From positions 62,001 through 126,000 of the forward strand of contig MU271216.1 in NCBI GenBank assembly GCA_021432655.1: DNA of 64,000 bases, in the 5' to 3' direction. This DNA is from Atractiella rhizophila. Its lineage: Eukaryota. How positions within the stretch are numbered: the stretch's first letter is position 1; every line of letters begins with the position of its first letter. Below are positions 6,552 through 23,826 of the stretch, in pieces. The notes beneath the pieces are model-generated. The model saw nothing but the letters and a program-made list of their open reading frames with translations. It ran no database searches and had not been told where the DNA came from. The translations under genes were made by a program, and so were the position numbers.

Positions 6552-7391
6552 AGAGCTTTTATACAACCTTCTCGATCCTTCTCGTTTTTCTCATGGGTAT
6601 TGTCTAACCAACCAACCAATATCGTAGTTTAGTATTTACAACAGTGGACGACTTTCCGTAAAAAAAAATGCAGCCTGCGCGGAAATCAATTAAATTCTGC
6701 TTGACTAGAATTCAGGCAAATTTATGGGCAGGTATAACCTTCCCATCGACATCCATGGTGGATTCTTCCCAACAACGTTCTTAGTAAGAGGAGCAATGGA
6801 AATGCCCGAGGTCGTTATCAATGGCTGTCGGCCGATAAATCTTCATTCCTGGCGCAAACATTTGGACCTGGCGCTGACTTGCGATCCTGAATATGGTTGA
6901 GAACCCTGGAATAGTTGTCAGGGTTGTGCTTTCTGGAAATTGATATCCTTCCTGAGGTTATTTGGTCAGTGTGCTTTGTAGACTCTCAACGATATTCTTT
7001 GATCATTCTCTTGACCGCCTGAGAAGAGGATCCGTTTGGCTTGTTCATTCTTCTCAGTTAGAAGCGATGGACATAATTAAGCTCGATATATTGAAGTAAT
7101 CAAGGTAAGGAACGGACTGTGGTAAGGCTTCCGTATCCCCTACATTCACGGGTGTATCCGCGCTACCCACGGGCGAACCCGAAAAGGTGTTCTAGGTATT
7201 TCTCAAATAAATCGACATTGCCTGATACACTCTCGAGCGCACATAGTTCATTCGTATTACTTGGCAACTTTTCTAGAGATGAGGGGTTCTTGTAGATCAA
7301 CCGAAGGTTGTTGCTGCCGATGAATCCAATCCAATCTGGGAAACAGCATTGACAACTCATCGAGTTCTTCGTCCGTCCTCTTCATCTGCTG

Positions 7392-8690
7392 CTAGGCAAT
7401 CAAAGTTTTTGGAAGCGGACAGGAATAGCAGGTCATTGATTCAGAATGTTTACTTTCAGTCGAACTTGAGCTTTCAGGACCAGGATTTGCGGTTCGCACC
7501 GGGAAGTGGTAGACAGTAAAGTTGGGGATGGTTGACGCTTCCATGGTCGAATCTTCAGGAAGGAGTTGGTCTTCGGTTGCATGTGGAGAAGAGTCGCCGG
7601 GAGACCTGTTGGCTTCTGGAATGAGCTGGATACTTTTCGTTGCAGTGTACGACGGATTGGGACCAAGCAACTCCAGAAGCCGTCCTTCGGAGAAAGATGG
7701 CTCTAGTCGTACAGTTTTCAACACTCGAAGATTCGCGTCGTCCAGGATCCAAGGGTGTTGACAAGCTTCTGTAACGCCCATCCGCTCGTCTACCCTTTGT
7801 CTGCATAGCCGATGGAGGAAGTTGTAACCTGTACATCACTTTAACACTCACAGCAATGTATTAATGAGATCTGTCATACATTCGGGAGAAGTACCCTCCG
7901 GCAAATCCTTCCACTTTAGAACACGCCTTTCAAGACGCGTGGCAAGAGGTACTTCCGAGTTTTCGCAGTCGAAAGGAATGGCATTGATCATGCAGGAGAA
8001 GATGACGAGGCCTAGAGCCCATGCATCACATTTTCGGTATACTGACCAAATTCCTTCGCGATGGCCTCTGGAGCCAACCTTTACAGATCCATTATCAGCA
8101 ACGGGGTCAAAAAGGGTAGCAAGGACAGGTGTACCAAGTCGTCCTCAACTCGCTTTCCTGAACCATCCCCGCTAAGCCAAAATCTGCAATCTTCACGACA
8201 GGGTTTATTCCATGAGTAATGAGAATGCTACCCGGCTTGAGATCCCAGTGAACAATCTTTTTGGCGTGAAAGGCAGCGATAGCTGGGAAGAGCATCTTAG
8301 CAATCTGCCTCGCGTCTTCCCCCAATAAACCTCCGCGTTTTGAGACATAACTGAGGAGGTTCCGCCATTGACGTATTCCAGGACCAGACAAAGGTCATCG
8401 TCATCGTCAAAGCATTCGATAAGCTTGACGACGTTTCGATGGTTAATCTCGTTGAGGATCGCCATCTCTTTCTCAAACATTCCTTTGGTCGTTTCAGACT
8501 TCAGTCTCGACTTCTTGAAGTGCTTCACGGCTCGTACATTGCTCGTCCCACGCTCGATCACGCGACATACCTTCCCAAAAGAATCCCTGTCACAATGAAG
8601 TAAATATGAGACGACATAGCGAGAAAGTGAGCTGCGGACATTCCAATAGGGATTGATTTATTGGTGTCAGCTTCATACCTAAACTTGGTT
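7392..8690 (-). pseudogene. Ser/Thr kinase, CAMK group (Chk2/Rad53/Dun1-like), disrupted
   Basis: RAVKHF, FEKEMAILNEINHRNVVKL, LVLEYVNGG / frameshift / IVHWDLKPGSILI, VKIADFGLA, DAWALG, EACQHPWI. The catalytic loop HRDxKxxN is altered to HWDLKPGS. Confidence 0.75.
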
Positions 8691-10482
8691 TGACGCACTG
8701 TGGATCATGTGCGGATCTGCCTTTACATTCTTTCAAAGAAACGCGGCGAACTATTGGCCATTGCTGTGACGCGCATCGTGATCGCGGGAAGTTCTTGTCG
8801 ACATAGGATTCTGTAGAGCGTACCCGGGCTCACGGTGGGACGCAAAGCTCTTCTACGTTCAGAAGCCAGTAAGCGATTCGGAACCACCTTTACGGGTTCG
8901 CCCGCGTGCAGCACAGACAGATCTATGCCCAACCTCGTGATCGTAAGCTCCATTCTTCTCCAAGGCTTCCCAACCAGAAGCCAGCGCTCCGAATGTCAAA
9001 CATGGGTGAACCCGTACCGTTCACGGACGAACCCGTGCGAGGTATTCTCGAAGTAAGATGGACCCTCGGGTGGACCCGAAAAGGACGATTTATGTCTGTT
9101 TTCGAGTCGACTAAGAAGCTGGTCGTTTGCGAACTCTCTGCTCTTCTACTCCTCGGCGTCACGGACTGGTCCGTTCTTTTCCCCTTCTTCAGTTGGCTTT
9201 GGACGTTGCAGTTCGCGGAATCCAGATGAACTTGTGGAACCTTTGGTGGAACTCATTGGAAAACTTGCGCAAATTTCTAAGGACATCAAACCCGTATGAT
9301 CTCAGCAATTTCCGTAGCTCGAAGCTTTTGGGATCTTTGGTCGTGTCGGCTTCCAACTCCACTAACAACCTCTCCTTTTTCCTCATGGACCACTTTCACC
9401 GTAACCTCAATTTATGTGTCTCTCTCGCCACTGATCCTCCGCCAGGCCCTCTCAACCCAACAAGTCCAATTGCTCCCACCCAAAAGTGCCTCCATCATCC
9501 GCCTCCTGGAGTCAACCAGGTTAATTGGTCCTTACCTTGAGTCTCCAATCAATTTTCTCTCAGTTCATCCATAATGCATTTTGTATTGAAGTCGGCAACC
9601 CATCGTGACGGATGCTATATCGTTCGGTGATCCATCAATAATGCGACAGGATTGCACAGGAATCAATTCATCGAGAGGATTACCAAACCAAACCTTGCAC
9701 ACAGTTTAACCGGCAACGCTACGAGTATATTCCAAACCTCCACCACCGCTTCTTTGTGGACATCCACGGCTCGCGCCGTAGCCGCGAAGGCGAAGGAGCT
9801 GTGTTCGCTTTGCTTTTTGCTTTTTGTCCTTGACGAAACCGAGACGCAAAGCGAAGTTTAAGCCGGAGCAAAGCTTGAAAGTGATGACTTCCTCTCTTCA
9901 CGGATGTGATGTCAAGTTTGATTCCTGCTGAATTCTGGTCAGAATCTGTCAGAATTTGAATGGGAGTTTCCGCAATCTGCGTTTCTTTGTTCTCCACTCC
10001 GCCAGAAGAGCTTTTCGTTCCCCCCAACCACGGGCCCCGAAGAGAAGATGGGGCTAGAAGGAAGGAAGGTTTCCCCTCTCGGGCGGACCGGAATGGCGAT
10101 GATTTCATTGATCCAGCGTTCCAACAGGTTATAAGGAAGCGGAAAGAGGACGGTTATCGTTTACCTGCGCTGGGACCAAATGGTCATTACTTGCTAAAGG
10201 GACCGCTTGATCAAATCATTTCTTGCGGGTACTGGATCAAACGGTCAGTTTCATAATACCCAAGATGGAAAGTCATTTTTGATGCGGATCAAACGCCGTT
10301 TGCTGACGGATGGCTGCATCGACGGCGTCGAAACTGATTCTAATAAATTCTGGGAACAGAAGCGAAATCAGAGTGGTCCAACTTAGAAAGTTGAGGGGTG
10401 GTCCCACTTTCGCCTCCCGCTCCGAGTTTGGTGTGTCTTGTCCAGCCGCTCCATTGGTGAGGGGAGCTGACGGGAAACACAG

Positions 10483-12026
10483 ATGGCGTCCATTAAGTCT
10501 CTTCCCATCGAACTCCTCACGCATATCATCAGGCTGCTCCTCCTTGACCTTCAACAAAGGCTTCCCGATGATTCTGAAGGCTCCTCATTTCCCTCCTCGC
10601 TCCAAGTTGAGGTACTGTCAATAGCGACATCACTCACGCCTTGCTTACAAAAGTGTACAGGCCAGTTCTCCAATTTGGTACTCTTCCTGGCCGCGATCCT
10701 ATTCATACTCCTCATTCCGACTAGTTTCACCTGTTTGCTACCACTTCAGAGTGGCAGCACTGCAATGCTGGTTGCACACAATTTGTATATCTGCTAGTAC
10801 AACGGTTGCGCGGGAGGGGTATCCCAGTTTCAAAGCGATTGAGTGGTTAACGCAAGTAGGAATGGAGATGAGGCAGCGAGTAAAAAATATCTCCTGGATT
10901 TTCGAAAAGGATTCCGAGGAACTAACTGAAGGAGGCACTTCGACGTGCGGAAAAGTCGCTTCAATAGCCTTAGGGAAAACTTTGGCTTCCTTTCCAAGCC
11001 TGAGTGGGTTAGTGGCACGCAGCAGATATCATGGACTTCCATCTTCCTCTAATCTTCATCTTTGACGACGCCGAGGGCAGGAAGATGGACAACCTAAAAC
11101 AGTTGACATTGAATCCCGACGATGGGGAAGATGAAAACACTCACCTTGGACGGATTGGCTTGATGGATCTGGAAAGGATATCAAAAGTCGCTCCGAACCT
11201 CCAGATACTGACTGTTCACTACCTTCGTTCCTCCCCTTCGAACTGTCCGATGAGGCGTCTAGCTCCCCTTACCCATCTCGCCCTCTACGAGTGCAAACTT
11301 CGACCGTCCGATCTCTCCTTCCTCTTCCTCTCGGTCGTGGTCTCCCTCCGATCCTTGGCAATCATTCACCTCTCGTCCGAAGGTTACTCCGCCTCGCATC
11401 TTCCAATAGCTCTCGAACCTCTCTGCCCTCGCCTCAAAACCTTGTGTTGGAAAGCATCCTGGGACGACGACTGTTTCGTCGGCTTCTTAGGCCCATTGTT
11501 GGAGAAGATGAAGAGCCTTACGGCTCTGGTAGATCTTGGTGGGAATGCTCTGGACGGAAGGAGTGCGCTTAAGCTGCCCGATACCTTAGAAACGTTGGCA
11601 CTCCGTGTGGGTAATAATGAACGATGGAAGGCAAAGGTGGTCCTGAAAGCATTGGGGAGTTCGTATGGGGAGAGCGAAAAGAAAGCGTTGAAGAGATTGA
11701 GGAGATTGCGAATTTTCGGGCATGGTTGGGGTTTCATGGAAGGCATGGAGCTCCTCAATATCCTGACGTCCTCGAGGGCAAACGTGACGATGCAAATGCG
11801 GGACGGAGACTCCTTCTTCCTCATGCCAACAGACTCAGAGTTTCAGAGATTTATTTGCTGGGATTCGAATACCATCGATCCTAGCATTCCATGGTGCCAA
11901 ATCCAAACACATGTCTTCAAGAAAGTCGGAAGACATCGAATGGACCGGCGGTTATTTTCGAAATGGGCTTATGGGACGGTTCCACTTTCGATTACAGGCG
12001 TTCTCACATGGGACGATACTTTTTAA
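10483..12026 (+). CDS. F-box/LRR-like protein (introns and/or frameshifts; possibly a pseudogene)
   Basis: N-terminal MASIKSLPIELLTHIIRLL is F-box-like. The 331-aa ORF at 11031 has LRR-type repeats (LTHLALYECKL, LRSLAI, LKTLCW, LETLALR, LRRLRIFG). Confidence 0.65.
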
Positions 12027-12326
12027 CTTTCTGAATTGTTACCCTAATCCATGTTGATCCATGGCCTTTGAAATTTGACAGCTCCATACGGGAGGAGGAC
12101 ATTTGTGAATGCGATCAATACATGCATCTAGCTAACTTTAACGACTTCTATGACACAGCACAAGGATTGACATTTCAGCAGATTGTCGGCCGCTTAAGAG
12201 GTCACTGAAGCTTGAAGAGAGGATAGATTCACTGAACCTCCCATATGGGTACAGCATCAGTCATTCCATCCTGTGTTTTGTACTTAATTAGTTGACAACT
12301 ACTAAATATGAGTGAGCAAAATAAGT

Positions 12327-14020
12327 CTATAATTCATAACCTTCGTCCGCTTCAGCCAAGCGTGTTCGGCTCAAAACTTCACCATAACACAGGAGATAAA
12401 CCGTTTGGCCATTGGGTGACAAACGTTCCGCGAGCTCGCAATGAATACAGTTCGCAACACAAGTAAGCATCTGAGAACGACGTGGGGAAATCACTAAAGT
12501 CAAGTAAAGGTAGGAAGATGCACGAAAAAACGAACCTGAAAAGAGAAGAAGATTCTGAACTTTGGCAAGAATGTTCGAATAAGGGCAACCGAAGGTCGTA
12601 TCCGGCTGTGAAGATTGAAGAGGCGGGAAAGCAAGGCGTTCATCTGATTCCCCGAAAGAAGAGAAAGAGAACAACGAGAAACAGCAGAAGTGAAGAGTGT
12701 GCGGGCTACTCGCATGGTTCAGGGCGGCGAAGGCTCGTGAGCAGCAGCGCTGGTTTGCAGTCTCGAATTGCTATCACGGTGAAGCGGCTGCGGCGCCGGT
12801 TCAACAAGGGAGTTCAGATATGAAGGGTACTGTCCAACTGACGCAGTCAGCATAACCAAGGAAATGATGAGGCAACAAAAAATATGCGAACCGGATACCG
12901 AGTGTTTGGAAGAACTGTCCAATGGGGAACATAATGAGATGTGTACATGGAAGCAATTACCATCTCATCCCAGAAAAAGAGGAGGGAAGTATGGAGGGAA
13001 GAAATTGGAAGAGGAAATGCAATCAGGGTCTTGTAATCGACTGTCGCAACGAATGCCCAGTCCAACAAACCATCTGGTATCCCCAAAATGAGATACGGAC
13101 CTCAGGATGTGTACTTTCCGATCCAACATCACAATCCATGATCCATCAACGGAAGATGAAGACTCGTCGTCATCGTCCTTACATGCGCTGACGCCGTTCG
13201 TCTCAGTTATAGAAAAAGTGTCGTTTGTGGAAAGCTTTCTTTCGCGAGGAGCGTGGAGGAGCTGGAAAGGCTGAGCGCAGAGCCGGTTAGGGTCCATGTC
13301 GTGATTTCGACCAACCACAAAGCTGTTCAAATCGAAGGCTTGAAAGAGAAGGAATAACGAACAAGGTTAGTATCCTTAAAAGCTTTTGTAAAAGCGCGGA
13401 AAGTTGAGCCAACTCAAGCCTATATGACTACCACGCCTGCAACAACACACTTTCTGGGACTGTTTCCGACAGTGAATGCGCTTCAGTGACCAGAACTTAA
13501 GCCCAGCATCTCTGATATAATTGATGAGGCATTCACCATCAAAACACAATCTCTTGTTCCCTCTGCTCCAAGCCTCTCGAATAAGAGGATTGAGAACTCA
13601 GGTTGGACCGCATCTTCCCAAAGAAGAATAACTGCTATCCCATCGCCTCTGCCGGTGGTGGATTGGGAGCCTTCAGGGGGCTCTGAAACTGCAGAAATAA
13701 CGACCTGTCCATACGCTCTCCCCGTTCCATTCTCCACGCGGTTGCCGGTCTTTTCTAATTCATGACTTCGTTCGACCTCTTCGGAAGAAACCCATTGGAG
13801 ATATTCTAATGGGTTGTCGGGAGATGATGAGAGGAGAGAGTGACGTTCTTGGAAGGAGCACGATAGGAACTAGATGGGGAGGTGCGATTGCGTTCCGAGA
13901 AGGATGGACGCCGAGGGTACGGGGTCCCCGTCGAAGGAGACGAGGATGGATAGCGGTCTGGACTAGGGGGCCGCAAACCGCACGGTTACCCCCCGCGCGG
14001 TGGATCGTGTCGATGCCTTA
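12327..14020 (-). pseudogene. Degenerate membrane-protein gene, possibly PTM1/GOST (lung seven-TM receptor)-like
   Basis: A luminal-type region is followed by hydrophobic segments (DYKTLIAF..., IFCCLIISLVMLTASVGQYPSYLNS, LLLFSGSFFRASSYLYLTLVIS) with stops and shifts. The family assignment is a weak by-eye resemblance. Confidence 0.25.
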
Positions 14021-14329
14021 AGACTGTCTCGCTCTTTTCGACTGTCCGACGGCCGGAGCTATCGACAAATAAACAGATTTTAAGGACAAAGAGGAGGATA
14101 TAGAATTACGGATAAGGATAAGCTTGGCGCATCAACATCTGCTAGGTTCCATCATAATCGATTCCGTCAATCGCACCTCGATCTATTACACATTAAAAAA
14201 CAAAAAAGCAGTGCTGCAGGTTAGCAGAACGTTCGAAAATGGACGGTTGTTGTCTGCAACATCGACTTTTAGAGCTGGAGTTGGGGGAGCGGGGGTTTAT
14301 TGGGTCAAGAGATGATGCACGCTTTCTTC

Positions 14330-16464
14330 TTTATGTTTGATTTGTTGAAGTTGTTGCCTGCCTGGTCAGGCACCGCGGCTCCTCATCTTCTCGTCTCTCA
14401 AGCGTTTGCTGGTCGAAGAACCAGCTGAGCTTTCGTTTTGCCGAGTCGTAGCAAACTATGGAACTCCTGCCTTTTTACATGAACCCTTAACGACCTTTCT
14501 TAAAACTTTGTTACTATTTGGACCTCAGCGTTGTTACTCGTTACAGTTTTGAGCTTCGTGGCCGGGTGGACTCGTTCAGGTTAAGGGGTGTCCGGTTGCC
14601 TTCTCGTGTTGACGCTAACGTTGCCCAGCATATCACGAGTGTATCTCTCGACCTGACCTGCACTGTTTTAGTCGGCGTCCTGACCGGTAGGACAGCGTAT
14701 TATACTCGTCCATCATTCCATCACTCTCCTGCGTTGACGAAGTCAAAACCAACTGTCGAAAATACGGACCACTAGGTAAAGCTAACCTAGCGAAAACAAC
14801 AAGTGCGTCTTCGTCTTAAGCGGCCAGCAACGTCAACTTTTATTTAACTTCGTATTATCATACTTAGTTTCATACAGCTAACCTGTTTCTTCTCCCAGAC
14901 GTATTTTGAAGGTTCTCGCGCCCTGTAGGGGAGACAGACGGAGCCACTACGACGACAACACAGCCTTTGTTATTAAACTCCAGGAGAAGAGTCCGGAGTT
15001 TGGTCTTCCTTGTATTTTAAAGGAAAAACCCATGTGAGCTCCTTGCCTTTCGAGGAAGATGGGGTCAAAGGTGTAGACGATAGAAAGAAGCTCTTGTAGA
15101 CATGCCCAAGCGGGCACTTTCGAGCCCAAGCGGGCACTTTTAGCGCCCAAGCGGGCACCAGCCCTAACGCCTTTCACTTCCCAATTAATTGGGTACGATG
15201 GGTTACTGGATGACGCGGCAGGTGGCGGCTTAACGTCGATGTGGGGACAACTACAAGATGCTTCACAACCATGTAGGTCGCTTCGCAAACGCAAAATGCC
15301 TAGGGTGTAAGGGACAACCGCTTTTCCAGTAACAAAGGTTAAGTGCTATGTTGTCGTCGTAGTGTTGGCCTGGAGCCTTAGACGGAGGTAACGGACGCGG
15401 TGCATGAAGCTACGCCTAAAGTTGCAGTTGACATCCCGGCCTGCTGAGAAGGCTGGACTTGTACGGCTTCCTTCCTTGAACCTCAAGTGACCCTCATAAA
15501 GCTAAACTCAAAAAGAACTACTCTTTGAAGTGCTAAGTGCTGATCGAGGTAATAACCGGCGAGCAAAGTTGATACTCTAGCGTCGAGGAGAAGTTTATTT
15601 TCTGGCACGGAACCTTATCCGGTTGAAAACCTCTCCGGTTACGTACTCCGGTGAGTTTAGAAACTGTAGGGCTGCTCTTGAACGTCACGACTGTTGCACC
15701 CTGCTGCTTCTGAACTACTGACCGTTCCTCAAGTTTTAACAGTACAAGCCACCATGGACGGACAAAAGGATACAGGATCTACCTCCACTATCAAACTCAT
15801 CTACCTCCACAACCGTTCTCACGAAACTGAGAAGTCAAGACAGTACTGGAAAAACCGCTCAATAAGAAATCAAATTGCTTCAAGTTGGGGACTATAACGC
15901 CTACGTCAGCTCCTGATGCTAGGTTGTTAGCTTCTAAGCATGTGTTTCAGTTACTATCACCTAAGGCAGGTCACGGTCACGGTCTAATAACTGTGACGAC
16001 CTTGTCTGGTTCAAGCAGGATAAAGAAGGAAAGTGTTCAACGTGTAACTCTCGTCTGACGTCAAGGGTTGAGACGCGCTGTACATGTACTTCAGGCGTCT
16101 GCCAAAGCAAGAGCAGAAACGGAACTTGAGACCCTCGTCGCAATTCCTCGACGACCATTATGCTCTCTTATAAGATGCTGTCTTCCTTCAATCACACCGT
16201 GTCCGTACCGGTGATTGGTAGATGACGACTGGATGCGACTGTAGTGAGAACGTAACATGTCCCACCTGACCGAACGCAGGAACGACCGTTGTTCACGCTG
16301 GAGCACCCTCTTGCTTGCCAAGTTGCCGTCCAACCTCAATGAGAGAGTTACGAGACCCCCCAAGGGATAATACTTCAAAGCCGTGCTGTTCCGTAGTTAC
16401 AGCTGCGATAAAAGTACCTGCAGCATGCCGTCCAGTACTTTAACCTAGTTCGGTTCTTATCTGT
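14330..16464. other. Mirror block (reversed-only or complement-only sequence) abutting the gap
   Basis: 14359-14433 is the plain reverse, not the reverse complement, of 9100-9174 (73/75 identical). The base-by-base complement encodes a spliced Ras-family gene. The left boundary is approximate (at or before 14359). Confidence 0.92.
15716..16464. CDS. Rap/Rsr1-like Ras-family small GTPase, readable only as the complement read left to right; 3' end cut by the gap
   Basis: Complement exons 15716-15752, 15802-15855, 15908-16011, 16063-16188 (or 16203) and 16262-16464 give MTGKEFKIVMFGDGGVGKSALTLQF...YDPTIEDSY...IIDTAGTDQF...AGNKCDL...YYEVSAR. G1-G5 are all present with no stops. Confidence 0.9.
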
Positions 16465-16490
16465 TNNNNNNNNNNNNNNNNNNNNNNNNN
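16465..16490. other. Assembly gap (26 N)
   Basis: Run of N characters. Confidence 0.99.
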
Positions 16491-16805
16491 ATGGATCAAT
16501 TTTTCAATATTGATTTAGGGTACTTTCGAGGTGTCTCTGCGATTGGGATGGACTACATTATGTGGGACTTGTATGAGCCTTCTGAGCCAACAGTCGAAGC
16601 GACGAAAGCCGACTCAGAAAACTCTTCTCTTTCTGCCTCCCTTCTGCTGGGAGAGGATGACCCCATTCGTTCCACACCAGGTACCGAGCAGAAGGGTTCC
16701 GGGACTCATTTTCAGTGTAAAATCCCACCCCGTCTCCCCTAAGCCAGTTTCGGTAATTGCGTCCTCGACTGGACGCTTCTTAAAGGCTCACGCCATCATC
16801 TCTTT

Positions 16806-16886
16806 CACTGTCTTGGGAGCAACCTTCTATTTCCCTTCCTTTCTCGCTCATCAATCACTGTCTTGGGAGCAACCTTCTATTTCCCG
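16806..16886 (+). repeat. Local duplication of about 31 bp (tcactgtcttgggagcaaccttctatttccc x2)
   Basis: Two copies starting near 16806 and 16856. Confidence 0.8.
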
Positions 16887-18358
16887 GCATTTAGAGCTCA
16901 TCAATCCATTCACCATCCCGGCATCTAGAGCCTTGATTCTTCAGTCTGTTTAATCTCTGTCAATGCCAAGGTTTAACATGCCACATGTTCCATGTATTCT
17001 TTTGCTTAAGACATTGCAGATTTGGGAACTGTCTCACAAGATTGTTAATGGCAGCTTGATGAAGATGGAATTTCAGCGTCTTGTGGAATGATTTACAAGG
17101 ACCTCACAGATGCGCGACTTCCCATCCGAGATGTTGTCACCTGGTGGAACAGTCTCTTCCTCTGCCTTGAACGAGCTCTCCTGCTCCGACAAGCTTTCGA
17201 TGGTCTTACAGAACAGAGCTCATTCAAACTTAAGAAGTATGAAGTGATGGAACCTGAATGGAAAGTCCTAGGTGAATTGCAGGATGTTCTCAAGGTTTAT
17301 CAATTCCTTCGATTTAATCTGTGCAAGATCTGAGCCTGGACTGCAGCCTTTCTATCAAGCCACAGTCAAGCTATCTACCAAGAAACGGGTGCTCCTTACC
17401 GATGTAATCCCTTATCTTGATAAGTTTGACCATAACCTTCGCAACATCAAGCTTAACCGAAATGCGAATCTGTTTATTCTGTTGGGTGCTTGTCGCGCGA
17501 TTGCAGTTCTTAATAAATACTATTCAAAAGCTTGTCAGGAGACAAGCATGTATAAGTTGGCAATGGGTTCCTCTCTCTTGGTTATTATTACTGAGCTGAT
17601 GTGAACTTCTAGTACTCCACCCTTACCACAAACTTAAGTACTACGAACACACAGTGGTGGCTCACCTCCTGGATTCAAGATATTCGGGCATTGCTATATG
17701 AGGAGTTCAAGATCTACCATCCTACTCCTTCCACAGAGACCATAGTTGTAACTGATCTGCTGGATGAGGAGGACTCTGATGCGGAAGAACGGTTTGCATA
17801 TCAAAAAGATTACCAGCGGAATATGATGAGATCAGGCGGTACTTGGAAGCTGACCTGGAGAAGACATGCAAGGACTTCGATGTACTGGCTTGGTGGAATG
17901 GGGAACGGCAAGGAAGCCGGTATCCTAATCTTGCGAAGCTAGCAATAGCTGTGCTCTCCTGCCCTGGTGTGTACCATTTCCTTACTCCTTGCCTTCTGGT
18001 GACCCTTCCTTAGTGACCAGTACCGATGCGGAACGCGCTTTCAGTGCGGGAGGACTTCAGATCACCGGCCTCCGGCACAATCTATCACAAGATTCATTGC
18101 GTGCTGCTATGGCTTTAGGCACCTGCTATGATGCTGGATTGCTTTCTGGGACAGACAAAGAGCTTGTTGATTACTTTAAGACAAAGTAGACATATACACA
18201 CATACAAACCAATCAGAACTACTCTTTCCTGCCCTGCTTCATGACTGAATCATGAAGTCTCATGATAATCACCTGAGAATCATGACTTGTCATGAATGCA
18301 ATGTATGATCCGTGACATGACTGATGAATTGAAATTTGGTGGAAAAAGTCAAGACTTG

Positions 18359-20491
18359 TTGTTGTTGTTGTGATCATATTTCAGAGCTGTCAGACTATAG
18401 TCAACGTAGCTCTACATTCTGGGGGATATCACATTATTGAAAAGAAACACGGTTTACGAGGTGAAATTGGCCATGAATGGGTTAACTAAGCGAAGTATGC
18501 ATGTAATGTGTAAAGAAAAAGGCCCCTAACAATCCCCTTATAATGTTATGGTACTGGTGGAAGTAAGACCGAGTGGGGGGTTACTGAATCGCGATGGCTA
18601 TTTGTGTGAGGTAAATTATGCTTAGAAGATGCTGAATGGCAGATTGTGTTCCTCCTTGGGGACCCGTGTGTAGGTGAAATGAGTTCCGACCTCCGTCGTA
18701 CGTTGGGTTCCTGCAAAAGGTGCCTCAGTTCGGAAGTGAAAAATCTGGACGTAACTTGTTGTCTTTAATCTTCCCAATCCTCCCTGCTGTCATCCTTTTC
18801 TCCTCTTGCCTCCGCCGTTTGTTTCCTTTTTGCCTTTCTTCTATCCAAAACCCTCTGCGCCCTTGTGATCCATAACTTGAATTTCCCACTCCGTCTAATA
18901 AATTCCCATACCGCCTGTGTCGCCTCCGGTTCGCTCAGCAGGTCGCCCAGGGATCTGAAACGAACATCCTTTTTCGCGAGTCTCCTTCTAAGTTTTCTTC
19001 TTTCTTCCTCATGCTCCTCACATTCAAAAAAGAGGTGGGTGACCGTATCCCTCATGCCGCAGGAGTCGCAGTTCGGTTCTTCCGCAATCCCTATTCGATG
19101 CAGGTAGTTGTTGTTAGAGATGTGACCAGATCGCAGTTGGACGAAGATCGATGCCTGTGCTCGTGGCATTTCCTTTAGCATTTCGAAGGTCTGTTCGGAT
19201 GATAAGTGTCGTGCTAAGGAGCGGTGGTGTTTGCCGGAAGAGACTGGAGGGGCGGGTACCGTGGGGATGAATTTGTCGGTGGTGATGATTGCTTTGAGAG
19301 CGGAGGGGCTTCATGGGATTCTGATGTGACCTTGAGCTGATTTTGGATCTGTGGCTTTGTTTGCGGCTGTGTCTGCGAGTTCGTTGCCCTTGATGTTGTT
19401 GTGCCCAGGGATCCAGTGAAGGGAGACGGAGCATACCGGGAAGAGGTCTCGAAATTTGTTGGCCAATTTGATGATGTTGAGGACAATCCCGATTCCCGGT
19501 TTGCATTTGGGTTTTTTTCGACAAATTCTTGACTGCTGCCTGGGAATCCGTGAATATACGGACCGAGGAAAGTGTTCCTCGTGAGTTATTGAGCGCAATG
19601 CTCAACGCCAGGCCGCGATCAATGCCCATGAGTTCCGCTTTGAAAACTGTGTTGTCATCGTAGTTGCTAAGCCTATACCCTGCCGCCGTCTTTGGATTCG
19701 TCATAGCCAGGCCACAAGCTACCCCTTCCTCTGTCCTCGAGCCATCCGTAAAAATCCAGATCTCCCCCTCGTCTTCCTTAAGTTCGTTAAAGTTCTGGAG
19801 AGCTTCTTCCTTTGAATCAGTGATGAAGGAGTCAAATGGAGGCGTGTGTCCTGGGTGAGTGGAAAAGGAAGGGATGATTTCGAGGTCTCGAGGTAAGTTA
19901 AAGTGTTTCGATCCGACGAGAGAGTTCAGAGGGGAGCAGTGTTTTCTCGGGGGGGGGTTGAGATGAGGTGTTGTGCAATGACTCCTGCTGGGTTGGTGTT
20001 CGGAAGGGATAGTAGCCTGACCATGGCTCGTGTTACTACTTTGTCCAGTCTGGCTACGACCGGAGGGAGGTTTGAATCGTAGGAGAGAGCAGGGGCTGGG
20101 GTGGTGTGGAAGGCTCCTAGCATGAGGCGTTGGGCATACCGTTGGACGATTTCGAGGCGAGCGGCTCCTCCTGCTTTCTTTCCAAGGTGGTGCCAGATAA
20201 TGGCGTTGTTGTCCGTCATTGCGCAGATTGCAGCCTCAAAGAGGCGCCGATAGTGTGATAGAGGTATTCCTTTTGTGGTGTTGGAGAGTGTCGCCAGAAG
20301 GGAGAGCGAGGACTTTGCCTTCTTCTCGATCGCTTTTAAGTGAGAATTGAAATTTAACCTGGAATCGAGGAGCATTCCCAGGTACTTCATCTCAAGCGAC
20401 TGCTTTATGGTAGTAGATCCTACACGAATTGTGAGCGTGCCAAATCGGGACTTCATCCCCTTCAGTTTCCCGTAGAGGACGAAGTCCGTCT
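18359..20491 (-). mobile_element. 5'-truncated Tad1-like LINE (RT C-terminus, RNase H, CCHC finger) with TSD and (CAA)n tail
   Basis: KYLGMLLDSRLNF; RNase H motifs IFTDGS, AELMGI, IFTDSQAAV, HWIPGH...GNELAD; QLRSGH...CDSCGMRDTVTHLFFEC. TSD AAAAGTCAAGACTTG at 18344-18358 and 20492-20506. (TTG)n from 18359. Confidence 0.92.
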
Positions 20492-23025: not shown

Positions 23026-23826
23026 TCAAGTGAAAACGCAATGGGCCTTCCGCTTCTTCAACTCGCCCTGTGGATTCATATCCAGCTCCGAACCCATGAT
23101 CTGGCGGACAATACACTCGAAAACAGCAGCGACGTTGACTCCTAATTTGCTGATGTCTCATAGTACGGAACTCCGCCCCAAAGCTTCGAAAGAGAGGCTC
23201 CAGCCTCTGCTCCGACCGTTCGTTCCGTTATGAGGTCACACTTGTTACTAATCCGGACGAAAGGAACGTTTTCCTGCGAACAAAATAACGGTGTCAGTTG
23301 CAATTCAAAGAACGGTTTATCCAAGTCGTTACTGGCTTGCCTTCTTGATACCAAGCTCCTCCTTCTGCCGTATGATATTGTCTCGTATTGGACGCAGGTC
23401 CTTGGTGCTATCCATTGAGTCCAAGGCGAAAACAAGAATGAAACCGTCTCCAGATTTCATGTACAGGCTATCGAGAGCGCGGAACTATCTCTCGGCCTTT
23501 AGGAAAACAAATTTGGGGAAAAAAGTAGACGAACCTGGTCTATCCCAGCGGTGTCGAGGATCTGACATTGACAATGGACGAGATTCACAGTCATCGACTT
23601 CCGGTACGAATCTTCGATCGAAGGATCGTATCTCTCGACTCCATCCACGCTAAGTCCCCACACTTGATCTCAACAGGGATGACTATGGCAGAAGCGAACG
23701 GTCAAACGCTCTTGCCGACACCACCACCTACAGATGGAGAGCTGCATCACGACTACATGATCCTCGGAGCTCGAGAAAGAGCGTACCACCGAAGATGACA
23801 AGTTTGTACTCTCTACCTGACGGCAT
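23026..23826 (-). pseudogene. Rap/Rsr1-like Ras-family GTPase with CAAX end, frameshifted
   Basis: Spliced reading MPSGREYKLVIFGGGGVGKS...YDPSIEDSYRK...ILDTAGIDQF...SNKCDL...YYETSA...KKRKAHCVFT*. There are 1-nt deletions after GKS and after ETSA, and the intron-2 region is damaged. Confidence 0.85.

Follow-up and report, generated by a model that had tools for sequence, protein, structure and literature searches.

Can a stretch of more than two kilobases in a genome assembly be written in an order that neither strand of the DNA possesses, and would this be a property of the organism or of the record? The question is raised by contig MU271216.1 of the Atractiella rhizophila assembly GCA_021432655.1, in which a stretch of letters beside a gap had been described, in a reading made from the sequence alone (the sequence-only reading), as a mirror-image block. 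All coordinates are positions within the window, the whole 64-kb stretch of this contig that was analysed. The block is almost certainly a text artefact, the end of a contig whose letters were put down in reversed order but not complemented, and no property of the DNA; it is not a biological feature.

Mirror matches, composition and extent of the block

When the non-complemented reverse of the whole 64-kb window was searched against the window itself with BLASTN, two mirror matches were found in total, each reciprocal and both touching the block. One pairs 14359-14436 with 9097-9174 (96.2% over 78 letters, E 1.7e-29) and upholds the initial observation that 14359-14433 equals 9100-9174 written backwards (73 of 75 letters), while the second, absent from the sequence-only reading, pairs 15900-16187 with 23360-23646 (71.9% over 295 columns, E 1.4e-30).

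The composition of the block is inverted as well. All six asymmetries between dinucleotide pairs exchanged by reversal, TA/AT among them, are inverted in the block, and the excess of TA over AT previously noticed by eye was borne out with a TA/AT ratio of 1.60 in the block versus 0.61 elsewhere in the window. A reversal score, which sets each k-mer against its own reversal under a strand-symmetric model whose training sequence excluded the block, was positive for k = 2 to 6 in all controls of equal length (27 of 27, 2135 nt each) and negative for the block, with z values of -7.0 to -6.0. In a scan of 500-nt segments with k = 4, each segment being excluded from its own training, the 123 segments outside the block gave a mean of 40.8 (sd 19.1, minimum -6.2), and the four segments of the block gave -55.5, -8.9, -42.1 and -8.7; two of the 123 outside segments fall marginally under zero, at -0.4 and -6.2, values that belong to the distribution's tail. 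No further mirrored segment was found in the 64-kb window by the 500-nt scores and the mirror BLASTN search. The block is complex sequence with a GC content of 0.488, and its longest stop-to-stop open reading frame measures 132 aa as written versus 198 aa mirrored, a difference that is weakly informative.

Mirror BLASTN, k-mer and dinucleotide statistics, protein matches after mirroring and a public contig define the block, which is listed here with the gap and two repeated elements within the block:

14359..16465, no strand assigned: reverse-order, non-complemented block of 2107 letters
16466..16490, no strand assigned: N gap of 25 N, adjoining the right end of the block
14359..14436 as written, 16388-16465 corrected, no strand assigned: copy of a 78-letter repeat, 96% identical to 9097-9174, the corrected copy ending at the gap
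15104..15156, no strand assigned: 12-letter motif in complement-only form, three copies (15104, 15124, 15145)

The gap is the single N run of the window, and the block ends directly at it, as had been claimed. The left junction, located within an exon, is free of Ns. Since one T stands at either edge, the boundary is ambiguous by one letter, the block starting at 14359 or 14360 and ending at 16464 or 16465. The start at 14330 given previously has to be abandoned, as the loose end of a public contig places it at 14359/14360; a left edge at about 14430, suggested by the cumulative k-mer score, was likewise rejected as too coarse. The motif CGGGTTCGCCCG occurs once, at 8893, and its reverse complement once, at 7170; as originally stated, its complement-only form is found three times, every copy within the block.

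A Rap1b-like gene readable after reversal

The six-frame open reading frames of the block as written gave no tblastn match to the remaining window, whereas those of the mirrored block gave 16, at 9030-9195 and 23148-23650. Ras/Rap homologs, the best 120 of 5865 proteins matching the query P0001 at E 1e-10 or better, were then compared by tblastn with 12001-16465 of the window, the block being either as written or reversed in place: all 120 match the reversed form, with 356 HSPs, versus one of the 120, with a single HSP, for the written form. This lone HSP, residues 198-221 of P0005 at 14308-14367, lies nearly completely on the correctly written left flank. That the block is unreadable on either real strand therefore stands, Ras-family coding content emerging solely after mirroring.

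Reversal of the block in place yields a complete minus-strand gene with an ATG at corrected position 15180, five exons, a TGA and 221 codons. Its parts are as follows, the mirrored exons being those of the gene model:

written 15644..15752, corrected 15072-15180, minus strand after reversal: exon 1 with the ATG, mirrored
written 15802..15855, corrected 14969-15022, minus strand after reversal: exon 2 with the P-loop, mirrored
written 15908..16011, corrected 14813-14916, minus strand after reversal: exon 3, mirrored
written 16063..16203, corrected 14621-14761, minus strand after reversal: exon 4, mirrored
written 16262..16465, corrected 14359-14562, minus strand after reversal: portion of the last exon that is mirrored, codons ~137-204, in frame with 14358
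14305..14358, minus strand: end of the gene, codons 205-221 and TGA (14307-14305), correctly written and the sole part of the gene present in the text as written
13824..14304, minus strand: 3' region of the gene, transcribed and lying in the left flank, seen in record 19 of public run X3 and containing the intron 14059-14109 (plus-strand ends CT..AC)

The whole last exon, corrected 14562-14305, crosses the left junction, where codon 204 ends with corrected 14359 as its third base and codon 205 begins at 14358. The four introns measure 49, 52, 51 and 58 nt and have the ends GT-AG, GC-AG, GT-AG and GC-AG respectively. A model that allowed GT donors only led to a wrong protein of 223 residues and was discarded; admitting two GC donors gave the model of 221 residues. 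The GC-AG introns lie at corrected 14968-14917 and 14620-14563 (written 15856-15907 and 16204-16261), and these ends may be real or may point to wrong bases in the contig extension.

Alignment of the complement to Ras proteins had been named as a test of the mirror reading, and with it the mirrored text proved to encode a complete Ras-family protein that has 215 of its 221 residues in common with P0005, an Atractiella rhizophila protein that bears the name Rap1b-like. The six residue differences and the two GC donors show that P0005 comes from a sequence that the block does not match letter for letter; the mismatch may reflect a paralog, an allele, another strain or extension errors. P0005 matches the Pfam Ras profile (PF00071) with E 1.9e-43, the alignment taking in positions 1-161 of the 162 in the profile, and through its identity to P0005 the restored protein can indirectly be assigned to this family as a predicted member. 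Ras proteins are characterized by the G1 P-loop GxxxxGK[ST], the G3 motif DTAG, the G4 motif NKxD, the G5 motif SA[KR] and a C-terminal CAAX box. All five are found in the restored translation, as GDGGVGKS, DTAG, NKCD, SAR and, at the C-terminus, CIIS. Among the matches listed, the named relatives that come closest from outside the genus are RSR1 and Rap-1b proteins, and compared with this Rap1/RSR1 branch nothing about the restored gene is unusual beyond how the record writes it.

Reversal also turns both mirror matches into ordinary direct repeats, the similarity to the paralogous gene then pairing 14637-14924 with 23360-23646. The three motifs of the block then have the plus-strand reading CGGGCGAACCCG that is also seen at 7170, and come to lie ~490-540 nt upstream of the ATG.

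Public-run contigs at the locus

Logan contigs of three public runs (X1, X2 and X3) were aligned to 11500-19500 of the window. Record 19 of X3, a presumably independent, spliced contig of 1436 letters, matches 13824-14359 with 0 differences and skips 14059-14109, a stretch whose plus-strand ends CT..AC are those of a minus-strand intron. It extends 951 letters past 14359, and the 30 letters of this overhang that were compared agree without exception (30 of 30) with the window read backwards from 16464 to 16435. The true sequence after 14359 is consequently made up of the letters that now stand beside the gap.

Between 14437 and 16305, none of the seven bins has any Logan contig cover (depth 0) in any of the three runs, while the flanks are covered; a hole of this kind in contig cover is not probative. 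On the far side of the gap, X1 and X2 contigs cover the window again from ~16505-16569 onwards, and no contig joining both sides of the gap was present among the contigs of the three runs on 11500-19500. On the flanks, the X1 and X2 contigs fall into three identity levels, the X1 pieces numbering 200 at 99+%, 159 at 95-99% and 111 at 90-95%; these levels suggest several diverged copies, haplotypes or related organisms.

Origin of the reversed text

That the artefact arose from reverse or complement applied alone, as the sequence-only reading proposed, is supported by the gene and by the public contig, while its second form, the complement as the correct sequence in place, failed, as reversal is needed. 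According to that form, the order of the letters would be right and only the strand mishandled. Composition and protein matches fit either operation and cannot separate them, since reverse and complement describe the two strands of one and the same molecule. What decides is the left junction: reversal alone joins the last exon to the left flank and keeps it continuous, so that reversal is the correct form in place, whereas complementing would have the gene run from left to right, sever it by the gap after codon 204 and strand codons 205-221 and the stop codon on the minus strand at 14305-14358. The X3 contig, which runs from 14359 into the letters now beside the gap, speaks against complementing as well, and this form of the error is highly improbable. 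Even less credible, to a degree that makes it negligible, is that the mirror text represents real DNA, a long natural mirror arrangement brought about by some process. Nothing but the text itself argues for it; template-directed synthesis is not known to produce long mirror copies. The block, furthermore, is not the mirror of a nearby arm but unique sequence, the mirror image of which is an intact, spliced and transcribed gene, with intron ends, start codon and stop codon in the mirrored reading only, and the X3 contig has the opposite letter order.

In the record, the last 2107 letters before the gap stand reversed, which is equivalent to complementing where the reverse complement was due. 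The true order is the left flank to 14358, followed by the minus-strand Rap1b-like gene, its upstream region with three copies of CGGGCGAACCCG, the start of the repeat and the gap. A gap-closing or contig-extension step may have grown the left contig into the gap, given its output backwards and halted inside the repeat. Given an artefact, we infer such a step as its probable source from the left junction, which lies without Ns inside an exon, and from the exactly 25 N that follow the block. It is preferred over an error in scaffolding because a mis-oriented whole contig is normally gapped on both sides, and the left junction is gapless. Alternatively, the letters might have been reversed after assembly, by file handling, database conversion or preparation of the window, including as a deliberate control. 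The edit has sharp edges and amounts to nothing more than a string operation, and the window bears no trace of specific software, both of which accord with such an event, whereas the end of the block exactly at the N gap, with its start otherwise unmarked, fits a contig end grown into the gap better. A length of 25 is the default minimum gap for a utility of at least one gap-filling suite (PMC6240028), a match that argues against a later edit and is circumstantial. A reversal after assembly is thus unlikely, and neither a post-assembly edit nor a deliberate control would make the block biological.

Comparison with known systems

Orientation errors are known from public records, in which entries have been deposited as the reverse complement. 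Such errors resemble the block in that a true sequence is stored wrongly oriented through handling; a reverse-complemented piece, however, is readable on one real strand, so that annotation and mapping work, whereas the block matches neither strand. In the excerpts of the literature on reversed-not-complemented sequence that were consulted, no account was found of an assembly containing a block that is only reversed, and the phrase 'reversed but not complemented' there apparently refers to gene-regulation experiments.

Natural mirror repeats, as collected in non-B DNA databases for their H-DNA or triplex-forming capacity, are short, have arms close to each other and are often homopurine-homopyrimidine. 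The block shares with them the mirror symmetry of the written sequence and differs in being 2.1 kb of complex coding sequence. Its mirror partners, unlike the arms of H-DNA, are a short repeat and a paralogous gene in normal orientation, located 5.2 and 7.2 kb away and covering 78 and 288 of the 2107 letters.

Consequences for annotation and mapping

As the text matches neither strand, a Rap1-type GTPase gene is invisible to gene callers, BLAST and read mappers. Ras-family gene counts in the Atractiella rhizophila genome would record a false loss at this place, and read mapping a false coverage hole. The block has no biological significance; its value is that of a data-quality warning. The reversal-asymmetry score offers a cheap screen that can be applied to whole assemblies. 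The only gap in the window bears a reversed block (one of one), and it is conceivable, though somewhat doubtful, that the same software step wrote further contig ends backwards beside small N gaps, here and in assemblies from the same pipeline; if so, genes would silently be dropped from annotation and from comparative gene counts.

Neighbouring sequence

The paralogous gene at 23145-23826 on the minus strand belongs to the Ras family, with three of four tested open reading frames matching Pfam Ras, and its exons are identical to P0001 (149 aa), a protein named from Atractiella rhizophila. It is without GxxxxGKS and reads differently at the place where P0002 and other relatives carry the P-loop GGGGVGKS; this copy may be degenerate, or the gene may have been modelled wrongly.

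Beyond the right edge of the gap, the plus strand encodes a C-terminal dimerisation domain of hAT type at 17780-18013 (E 6e-10), and zf-RVT, a reverse-transcriptase zinc finger, and RNase H give weak matches at 18765-20235 on the minus strand, both under the curated cut-offs. By these domain matches, the two stretches are predicted transposon remnants, which fits the picture of a contig that stops inside a repeat and borders on a repeat-rich stretch.

The other copy of the 78-letter repeat, at 9097-9174, is spanned by a short open reading frame that starts with the ATG at 9092. The GC-rich 12-letter motif CGGGCGAACCCG and its near variants occur at 7170, 8893, 9003-9078 and 10080 and, mirrored, at 15104-15156; these sites are apparently intergenic or upstream of genes, and upstream of the Rap1b-like gene they form a tandem triplet with a spacing of 20-21 nt. 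The motif could be a regulatory site or a piece of a small repeat. At 7800-8760 on the minus strand, the translated open reading frames resemble, by eye, a protein kinase gene with short introns.
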